Shown here piece by piece: positions 18,980 to 44,130 of a stretch of 64,000 bases of DNA. Location: positions 6,176,001 through 6,240,000 of the forward strand of contig OZ252299.1 in the NCBI GenBank assembly GCA_965250285.1, in the 5' to 3' direction. The position numbers and the translations under genes were made by a program. Position 1 is the first letter of the stretch; every line of letters begins with the position of its first letter. The notes below the pieces were generated by a model. It was given only the letters and a program-made list of their open reading frames with translations, was not told the origin of the DNA and ran no database searches. The stretch comes from Myxococcota bacterium. Lineage in GTDB: Bacteria > Myxococcota_A > UBA9160 > UBA4427.

Positions 18980-19567
18980 ATGACAGCTACCCCCCCTCGA
19001 ATCGCTGTTGCGTGTCTCGATGCGCGTTCGTTCGCTCACTCGATGACCCGCGCAATTCTCTGCGTGATCGCCGTCGCGTTATCGATCGCAGGCCCGGCCT
19101 CGGCCCAGGAGGTCAGCGCCGATGATATGCGAAGCCTCGATGAGCGCGTGCAGTCGATCAAATCGGATGTGCTCGAGATTGCGGCCGAGCTGACGCAGCT
19201 CGAAGAGAAGCTGCTGTATCCGTCGAGCACACAGGTCGCCGTTTTCGTTTCGTTCGCCGATGGCTACGAAGGTGACCTCGACTCGGTCGAGATCCGCATC
19301 GACGGTGAGCCGGTCGCACATCACGTCTACTCCTTCGAAGAGGTCGACGCGCTCGGCAAGGGCGGCGTCCAGCGCGTCTACACCGGCAACCTTCGCACCG
19401 GCGACCACCAGCTCGTGGTGTCCGTTCAGGCGACGTTGCCCGGCGGTCGCGCGGTCACCGGTGAGCAGACCTTCACGATCAGCAAAGAAGCAACGCCGAA
19501 GCTGGTCGACCTGCGCTTCGCAGCCAATGCGACTGGCGACCTGAAGATCGAGCTCGGAGACGGCTGA
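18980..19567 (+). CDS. Exported coiled-coil/beta protein, first gene of the Agl-Glt-like operon
   Basis: AGGAAGGG RBS before 18980 (alternative ATG 19043); signal peptide ending GPASA; LDERVQSIKSDVLEIAAELTQLEEKLLYPSSTQVAVFVS; 1 bp from the next gene. Confidence 0.75.
   Translation: MTATPPRIAVACLDARSFAHSMTRAILCVIAVALSIAGPASAQEVSADDMRSLDERVQSIKSDVLEIAAELTQLEEKLLYPSSTQVAVFVSFADGYEGDLDSVEIRIDGEPVAHHVYSFEEVDALGKGGVQRVYTGNLRTGDHQLVVSVQATLPGGRAVTGEQTFTISKEATPKLVDLRFAANATGDLKIELGDG

Positions 19568-44130: not shown

Follow-up and report, generated by a model that had tools for sequence, protein, structure and literature searches.

A "core complex" made up of gltC, gltD, gltE and gltG, of aglR, aglQ and aglS, and of one extra gene that lacks a myxobacterial homologue was found clustered in Gammaproteobacteria, Betaproteobacteria, Geobacter and Fibrobacter; its function was stated to be unknown, and its study was proposed as a route into the mechanism of gliding (Luciano et al., 2011, PMC3169522). 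In an AlphaFold model of the Agl-Glt machinery, GltC docks on the side of the GltA/B barrels that faces the periplasm and the C-terminal domain of GltG binds GltD and GltF (PMC11761067). With regard to surface fibres, DUF11, now renamed CLIPPER, has been shown to serve fibrillar adhesins as a stalk domain locked by isopeptide bonds (10.1101/2025.04.25.650565). As for large barrels, the 36-strand SprA is cited as the largest one solved (10.64898/2026.03.07.710327); predictions of 38- and 40-strand barrels, families 002 and 003, came with no function (Solan et al., 2021, PMC8346858), and three 38-strand barrels were reported in Deinococcus (PMC9388160).

In this work a stretch of 64,000 nucleotides (the window; contig OZ252299.1 of assembly GCA_965250285.1) was analysed, in which an operon of the core-complex type is followed by a riboswitch and by the gene of a giant protein containing an immunoglobulin (Ig)-like stalk and a very large predicted barrel. 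The unit is real and conserved and represents an apparently undescribed variant of the known Agl-Glt motor, and what is new in it is the partner of the motor, the giant stalk-barrel protein, and not the operon.

The locus and its genomic context

The source genome is a single contig of 6.25 Mb, 95% complete, and its closest named relatives carry the labels Myxococcota or Deltaproteobacteria. Re-derivation of the open reading frames returned the nine packed, co-oriented genes of the initial annotation at the same positions, with intergenic gaps of -4 to 41 nt and with Pfam/NCBIfam matches to TPR (three genes), MotA_ExbB, ExbD (two genes) and AgmX/PglI (Table 1). The riboswitch and the gene of about 15 kb (frame open from 28837 to 44130) were equally recovered, and no TonB-dependent receptor, TolB or Pal gene was present among the neighbours scanned, as had been annotated. 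In a genome search neither the giant gene nor any motor gene of the nine had a close paralogue, and a single AgmX/PglI gene scored above cut-off in this genome. No sigma-70-like promoter was found in 18300-29200.

Table 1. Features of the motor operon, the riboswitch region and the giant gene (positions of the window; residues of the giant protein in parentheses)
Feature	Position	Strand	Basis
Exported protein, coiled coil and beta-rich domain (gene 1)	18980..19567	+	First gene of linked and short-type operons
TPR protein at GltC position, 632 aa (gene 2)	19569..21467	+	TPR; size and position of Gura_3077 (MXAN_2541 homologue)
GltD-like TPR lipoprotein, 1046 aa (gene 3)	21464..24604	+	Match to gltD-position gene; position
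GltE-like TPR lipoprotein, 211 aa (gene 4)	24607..25242	+	NF033758 GltE, E 2.5e-13 (below cut-off); position
Small exported protein at GltF position, 102 aa (gene 5)	25246..25554	+	Conserved in linked and short-type operons
ExbB/TolQ-type channel subunit, AglR-like	25596..26246	+	PF01618, E 1e-25
ExbD-type subunit 1, Asn replacing the usual transmembrane Asp	26250..26744	+	PF02472
ExbD-type subunit 2, transmembrane Asp kept	26741..27250	+	PF02472
"Long" GltG-like transducer	27257..28627	+	NF033768, 57 bits (cut-off 40); hydropathy
c-di-GMP-I riboswitch aptamer, G20 type	28722..28809	+	Rfam, 83 bits (gathering 35)
Predicted hairpin pairing the putative GAGG ribosome-binding site	28831..28879	+	ViennaRNA fold
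Giant stalk-OmpA-barrel fusion, 5,080 aa	28888..44130	+	Frame open from GTG 28837
N-terminal region (67-977)	29035..31767	+	Variable between loci
Eleven tandem CLIPPER/DUF11 repeats (978-2784)	31768..37188	+	Self-HMM and alignment; TIGR04226, E 3e-22
Conserved stalk base: SdrD-B-like, twelfth CLIPPER repeat, CnaB-like domain	37189..38751	+	Pfam
OmpA-like domain 0 (3306-3391)	38752..39009	+	Beta-alpha-beta-alpha-beta topology, pLDDT about 90
Three OmpA-like domains (3476-3910)	39262..40566	+	PF00691, model
Two beta-sandwich domains before the barrel	40744..41436	+	Models; C2/Ig-like, Z 8.3, rmsd 3.0, 101 aligned
Single beta-barrel, predicted to have about 40 strands (4204-5097)	41446..44127	+	AlphaFold2

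An exported protein of no known family, a LuxR-like gene and an rRNA operon are located 5' of the locus. The gene at 17572-18606 on the minus strand, divergent from the motor operon, encodes an exported protein that combines a charged coiled coil with a C-terminal tail rich in Trp, Tyr and Arg and that has no Pfam or NCBIfam match. A DevBCA exporter is encoded 3' of the giant gene; in its operon the DevA-type ABC ATPase carries a fused TerB-like domain (46279-47370, plus strand), and a second devBC locus is present elsewhere in the genome. This exporter was rejected as a component of the system, since no match to it was found 3' of the giant gene in four relatives.

A motor operon of the Agl-Glt core type

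The resemblance to the Agl-Glt core pointed out in the initial annotation was corroborated: GltG, GltD and GltE were recognized by direct match, and gene order and sizes agree. The operon is, however, far from undescribed, as that annotation had supposed, since it corresponds gene for gene to the core complex; order and sizes match Gura_3077-3070 (629, 1108, 240, 211, 166, and 166 aa), and one ExbB and two ExbD genes are clustered with gltG in both (Luciano et al., 2011, PMC3169522). When the individual families were checked against AglRQS and GltC-G, the ExbB/ExbD, GltG, GltD and GltE assignments held, while the match of gene 2 to the myxobacterial GltC-like protein was collinear but weak (hhalign E 0.0023, probability 12%).

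Gene 2 had no NF033756 match and lacks the aromatic C-terminal tail of the myxobacterial GltC-like protein; from its GltC position it is predicted to be the bridge to the outer-membrane partner. Three tandem GltC-like paralogues were observed 5' of a short-type operon, that is, one with GltG of the short type, in another genome (L230:2451-7930). Gene 1 heads every operon seen in full and, by position, is probably the additional gene of the non-myxobacterial core complexes; it matched nothing in Pfam, NCBIfam or PDB, and the idea that it could be a detached piece of GltC received no support, as it did not match the GltC-like protein. A gltABCDEG cluster of the myxobacterial type has, at the gltD position, a gene whose product aligns with residues 159-976 of gene 3 (20% identity, E 3e-24), and lipobox cysteines are evident in genes 3 and 4. 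Gene 5, like gene 1, belongs to no Pfam/NCBIfam family and would be GltF judging by position alone.

The transmembrane residue of ExbD subunit 1 is Asn in 100 of 102 readable long-type matches and in 12/13 of the short-type ones, and that of subunit 2 is Asp in all 95 readable matches. Since linked and short-type operons share this pairing of an Asn with an Asp subunit at the usual proton-carrying position, the motor would seem to be a functional heterodimer in which a single site is acidic. Compared with the core complex, GltG carries here an N-terminal extension of about 160 aa, followed by one transmembrane helix (166-191), a Pro-rich linker and the AgmX/PglI C-domain. The extension, which is the mark of the barrel-linked clade discussed below, matched no family above cut-off and may possibly serve as a regulatory input. 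By hydropathy this segment (27257-27730) is cytoplasmic, and it contains a conserved L-x-x-L-x-E-x-G-x-A-x-L-F-W-G segment.

A giant protein with a CLIPPER stalk and a predicted 40-strand barrel

The giant protein begins with a signal peptide; the protein database call (P0001), of 5,080 aa, fits TTG 28888 as the start, and residue numbers are counted here from GTG 28837. Pfam recognized DUF11, SdrD_B, OmpA and, weakly, an outer-membrane barrel. Roughly 100 full-length relatives are also fusions; they measure 2,900-6,000 aa and are 47-65% identical in the barrel. The first 1,000 aa had no Pfam match; region 67-977 is likely composed of divergent DUF11-like Ig domains, as its nearest ESM Atlas clusters are DUF11 (0.92-0.93) and it weakly matches the repeats of the protein itself. 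Most of the CLIPPER repeats have Lys, Asp and Asn in register at the positions of the isopeptide triad, and the best fold matches of the modelled stalk base are Gram-positive shaft pilins such as BcpA.

OmpA-like domain 0 forms the C-terminus of the stalk protein in loci where stalk and barrel are separate genes and is the conserved ending of split and motor-less stalk genes; it is predicted to act as a periplasmic retention domain. In split loci the three OmpA-like domains that come after it are N-terminal in the barrel protein, and the first of them keeps the invariant Asp and Arg of the peptidoglycan-binding motifs. A model of residues 3070-4204 (pLDDT 84, pTM 0.43) placed domain 0, a disordered linker, the three OmpA-like domains and two beta-sandwiches in this order.

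The AlphaFold2 model of residues 3928-5097 (pLDDT 83.9, pTM 0.81) predicts a single barrel of 40 +/- 2 strands, counted from the secondary-structure list rather than from coordinates, with a helical segment and a beta domain (4354-4461) as inserts. The first and last strands would close one barrel, because porins align across model residues 275-1170. The best Foldseek TM score was 0.20, the barrel profile had no sequence match among PDB chains, and no structure of the same size was found among 48,161 representative chains, a list outside which further families may exist; in a wide fold search the type IX translocon ranked second (Z 12.1, rmsd 12.6, 644 aligned). The barrel family is large, with 3,128 representatives at E 0.001 (50% clustering), many of which are stand-alone proteins of 1,150-1,250 aa.

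Long-GltG motors are linked to the stalk-barrel genes

In a genome scan with a GltG alignment, the best 80 of 575 relatives were inspected, a set selected for closeness that overlaps with the family relatives described below. Of the long-GltG loci, 69 extend 1 kb or more downstream of the operon, and in every one of these a stalk gene comes next (65 called by BLAST, two by DUF11 and two by a match to other giants); the same holds for 4 of the 11 loci with less than 1 kb. The motor subfamily is thus tied to the stalk gene, which is far from being a rare neighbour of such operons. The linked loci belong to Myxococcota, Woeseiaceae, Steroidobacteraceae, Thiohalomonadaceae, Thiotrichaceae, Microbulbifer and Gallionellales. 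Seven loci (L087, L089, L092, L103, L114, L143, L154) are labelled Spirochaetaceae, Chloroflexota, Acidimicrobiia or Hyphomicrobiales and have sequences near those of Myxococcota/Gammaproteobacteria; they are probably mislabelled or come from mixed bins, and therefore no extra phyla were counted.

An even sample of 400 scored Gammaproteobacteria (G433 left out) contained a GltG-like gene in 78 genomes and the long form in seven, the chosen centre genome included. In six of these seven the long-type motor lies 11-18 kb upstream of the barrel on one contig, and in the seventh both members of the pair are at contig ends. None of the short-type GltG matches of 75 genomes was near a barrel match, two low-scoring ones having been classed without their loci. 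Among 11 relatives of the family to which the window belongs, six have close barrel and motor genes, with the whole unit on one contig in four, a locus cut after the riboswitch in one and motor fragments in another; the other five have neither a barrel nor a GltG match. Exceptions, with a short-type motor elsewhere only, are G485, whose close barrel (56%) lies on a 3.5-kb contig, and G479, with a three-OmpA barrel. Order and adjacency of motor and barrel are kept down to about 40-45% barrel identity, across two phyla.

In a quick barrel tree (52 rows, SH-aLRT only, midpoint root) the linked barrels, contig-split pairs included, group as a single clade with a support of 99 for 28 rows and of 82 for 29 rows; the fragments G485 and G087 also fall in it. 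The motor tree (40 rows) separates the linked motors from 14 motors of the short type with a support of 99. The branching order of both trees is largely the same and GltD and barrel distances are correlated (Mantel r 0.84, n 23, 0/5,000 permutations); this match shows retention and not contact, since neighbouring genes share their descent even when their products do not interact, and the genomes are related. The Myxococcota rows nest among Gammaproteobacteria in both trees, suggesting that the unit was transferred as a whole. The barrel protein has a conserved N-terminal motif that was considered as a motor-specific dock and rejected, since related sequence occurs in motor-less barrels; the profile of this motif was detected in 101 of 120 giants, including all linked barrels but one (weakly in G201 and G314). 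To the eye, the motif bears a resemblance to the N-termini of TIGR04565 proteins.

A probable exchange of the outer-membrane partner

Barrels of TIGR04565, the GltA/GltB family, stand beside four fetched short-type operons, which instead of a stalk-barrel gene have TIGR04565 barrel, SH3-barrel and TlpA genes at their 5' side. This family was detected in 55 of 401 Gammaproteobacteria, corresponding to 54 of the 75 short-type genomes and to one of the 322 GltG-negative ones, and in none of nine long-only genomes (G201, G228, G314, the genome of the window, which is 95% complete, and five relatives); given that 21/75 short-type genomes also lack a match, absence alone is not rare. The simplest reading of its presence beside short-type motors and of its absence from long-only genomes is a replacement of GltA/B by the large barrel.

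A conserved gene block was observed 5' of short-type operons in L224 (2-5519), L225, L226 and L228. It comprises a protein with a hydrazine-synthase-alpha-like domain, an SH3 plus barrel protein, the TIGR04565 barrel, a TlpA-like thioredoxin, a protein of about 400 aa and sometimes ApbE, and it probably supplies the common core complex with its outer-membrane end.

The stalk-barrel pair without a motor

Full-length barrels were present in 29 Gammaproteobacteria, seven of them motor-linked, 12 with a short-type motor elsewhere only and 10 with no GltG match, so that 22/29 have no adjacent motor. The stalk gene is directly 5' of all eight unlinked barrels fetched, and stalks exceed 4,200 aa in G491 and G332, neither of which has a GltG match. 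The barrel was also found on 21 plasmid records, none with GltG, and the two that were opened contain a stalk-barrel two-gene unit; in a plasmid of Eleftheria (L269:5387-22703) the motor-less pair directly follows response regulator, FecR and CHASE2 genes. On sequence grounds the stalk-barrel pair is an autonomous module and, with so many pairs lacking a motor, the motor is probably unneeded for export, at odds with the motor-driven export that was initially envisaged. Nor is the fusion of stalk and barrel the rule that the window suggested: where the junction is visible in motor-linked loci, 28 are split, the barrel gene starting with its own signal peptide, against 10 fused ones, and the fusion is thus incidental. 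Linked barrels have three OmpA-like domains and most unlinked ones have none to two.

In the phylum of the window, 48 further genomes out of 200 encode distant barrels without a close GltG. Families f16 (18/18 genomes) and f33 have frames of 4,000-5,100 aa that end in a distant barrel (24-35% identity; e.g., L078-L080, L082), and the fetched 5' regions of these loci had no match to the nine motor genes. In G163 (L081:491-10620) a distant barrel homologue of 1,559 aa (about 25% identity, no OmpA match) is followed within 5.5 kb on its 3' side by two ExbB-like genes, one ExbD gene and one gene of the canonical TonB_C type, which may be a separate case, arisen independently, of a proton motor paired with this barrel family.

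The c-di-GMP riboswitch

The riboswitch of the window is the only c-di-GMP-I riboswitch in the 6.25-Mb genome, with no second copy in window positions 16000-46000, and it sits after the motor operon, preceding only the giant gene. In riboswitches of this class G at position 20 specifies c-di-GMP and A specifies cGAMP (PMC6140456). The residue is G in 40/40 homologues, and a cGAMP riboswitch was rejected accordingly. These 40 matches were obtained with a covariance model built from six close riboswitches and run on 93 loci; 36 follow gltG and precede the stalk gene (in 36 of 80 loci) and four precede gene 1, three of the latter four loci having one also before the stalk gene and the fourth being cut off there. 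Rfam detected no riboswitch in 17 other linked loci or in 13 short-type loci, which confines riboswitch control to part of the clade.

At the junction between riboswitch and giant gene no terminator-like site was found. A putative GAGG ribosome-binding site lies 9 nt before TTG 28888, and the predicted hairpin that pairs it would give translational control. Hence, of the c-di-GMP control proposed for the whole system, the type of riboswitch stands (G20, Rfam), while the motor operon of the window is not placed behind it and the arrangement is restricted to 36/80 loci.

A model for the motor-barrel unit and its alternatives

The reading favoured here, to which a probability of about one half is assigned, is that an autonomous barrel-adhesin export module was adopted by the motor as its outer-membrane handle, the motor pulling, repositioning or releasing a tethered stalk. 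The genes are linked and co-inherited, with c-di-GMP riboswitches in some lineages. The giant protein would be exported by Sec, its barrel of about 40 strands would insert in the outer membrane, and its OmpA-like domains would hold peptidoglycan. The Ig stalk may then thread outward through the wide lumen, with its C-terminal OmpA-like domain staying in the periplasm as a cork; in that case the stalk would remain tethered, fused or split. The amount of adhesin translated is predicted to be set by c-di-GMP. Length and domain type alone point to surface display of the stalk, and we infer its threading and the contact between motor and barrel, whereas barrel size, cork domain and translational control are predictions from models. 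In favour of a mechanical role, the stalk resembles force-bearing, isopeptide-locked pilins.

The strict linkage and the matching trees would also be expected if the motor energised export itself, driving the long stalk through the barrel or extracting it, as the type IX motor does for SprA; the barrel falls in the size class of the type IX translocon, and the higher number of OmpA-like domains in linked barrels agrees with such a role. Equally long stalks occur, however, without a motor, as in G491 and G332, where a generic TonB is conceivable, and the stalk-barrel unit stands alone on plasmids, which makes motor-driven export unlikely. Motor and adhesin could otherwise be co-regulated neighbours serving a surface-attached lifestyle, with the motor acting on another envelope target and the barrel-adhesin working alone. 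The autonomy of the module in many genomes, the riboswitch that separates motor and giant in the window and the failure to find a motor-specific docking motif speak for this, but order and adjacency kept over such divergence in two phyla, long-only genomes without the usual outer-membrane partner and the single AgmX/PglI gene above cut-off in the genome of the window weigh against it, and it is given slightly less credence still.

That the protein is instead an envelope tether or importer, a plugged pore or an anchor opened or unhooked from peptidoglycan in the manner of Tol-Pal, with the Ig chain never exported, seems improbable. The four OmpA-like domains fit this possibility, the inserted beta domain could be a plug, and some motor-less relatives are annotated as "TonB-dependent receptor"; yet the barrel compares with TonB-dependent receptors at a TM score of only 0.13-0.15, about 3,200 aa of Ig domains would far exceed the width of the periplasm, the N-terminus of the stalk varies between loci, and CLIPPER repeats have been described as stalks of fibrillar adhesins (10.1101/2025.04.25.650565).

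Returning to the adopted-handle reading, a bolder extension of it can be formulated, with the odds clearly against it: the CLIPPER stalk and the 40-strand barrel would be a secretion/display system in which Ig chains, folded and locked by isopeptide bonds, cross the widest pore known to be formed by a single chain. In one clade the ancestral Agl-Glt motor would have captured this system, giving an adhesin that can be retracted or moved by proton power; a bacterial focal adhesion would thereby have been invented independently, and it could drive surface crawling or active detachment in sediment Gammaproteobacteria and Myxococcota.

Significance

In the literature searched, a body outside which most subscription papers lie, no description of the motor-barrel-adhesin unit was found. 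The supplementary files of the core-complex study that were searched do not mention OmpA or DUF11 (PMC3169522), GltG and AgmX did not occur in the sections consulted of a 2025 survey of periplasmic force transducers (PMC12204202), and the portion consulted of a preprint on type XI secretion contains a single mention of DUF11, on a different subject (10.1101/2024.09.26.615229). Since 2011 the core complex has been described as a machine without a known function; the long-GltG subfamily offers a single visible candidate cargo. This cargo, together with a regulator and with hosts available in culture (Microbulbifer guangxiensis, M. hainanensis and M. taiwanensis), makes its function directly testable. 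In turn, the predicted 40-strand barrels gain a probable job, the export of CLIPPER adhesins, and the stalk-barrel export module may itself be of a new kind. If the motor does move the stalk, the core would be an engine for handling adhesins in general, its ends at the outer membrane being interchangeable, and this would recast the origin of gliding.

Comparison with known systems

In type V secretion a passenger is paired, fused or split, with a 12-strand autotransporter barrel or with a 16-strand Omp85 barrel carrying POTRA domains. The type IX system combines SprA (36 strands), TPR lipoproteins, the PMF-driven PorLM motor and CTD-bearing cargo. The layout of the window was initially held to differ from both, and it does. 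The passenger and barrel, fused or split, are reminiscent of type V, but here OmpA-like domains lie between them, the barrel has about 40 strands, and no POTRA or autotransporter Pfam domain was detected. The wide barrel, the PMF motor and the TPR lipoproteins are shared with type IX; here, however, the motor is of the TolQ/ExbB type instead of PorLM, the barrel has no PDB match and no CTD family was matched.

Among CLIPPER adhesins, that of Acinetobacter silvestris (B9T28_05395) has a stalk ending in an OmpA-like "anchoring" domain, like the split stalk genes described here, and the signal peptide, the tandem DUF11 domains with Lys/Asp/Asn and the C-terminal anchor domain are all present in the giant; the words "secretion" and "beta-barrel" do not appear in the main text of that preprint, which gives no export route, barrel or motor (10.1101/2025.04.25.650565). 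The barrel superfamily of Solan et al. (2021) is likewise a large family of single, very large barrels of about 40 strands, a likeness in strand count, and the passages on it contain no function, cargo, motor or sequence identifiers (PMC8346858).

With respect to the core complex, the neighbour of the operon is here a CLIPPER stalk with a barrel of about 40 strands. As regards the M. xanthus Agl-Glt machinery, the ExbB-type channel, the two differing ExbD, the TonB-like transducer and the TPR scaffolds are common to both, and the end point of both is an outer-membrane barrel with an adhesin (PMC11761067). In contrast to that machinery, no barrel of the GltA/B type was above cut-off here, GltG has no FHA match, and GltJ, the second transducer of M. 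xanthus, is absent given the single AgmX/PglI gene of this genome. The organism of the window is known from its sequence only, and its adhesin is a long Ig stalk, where that of M. xanthus is the lipoprotein CglB.
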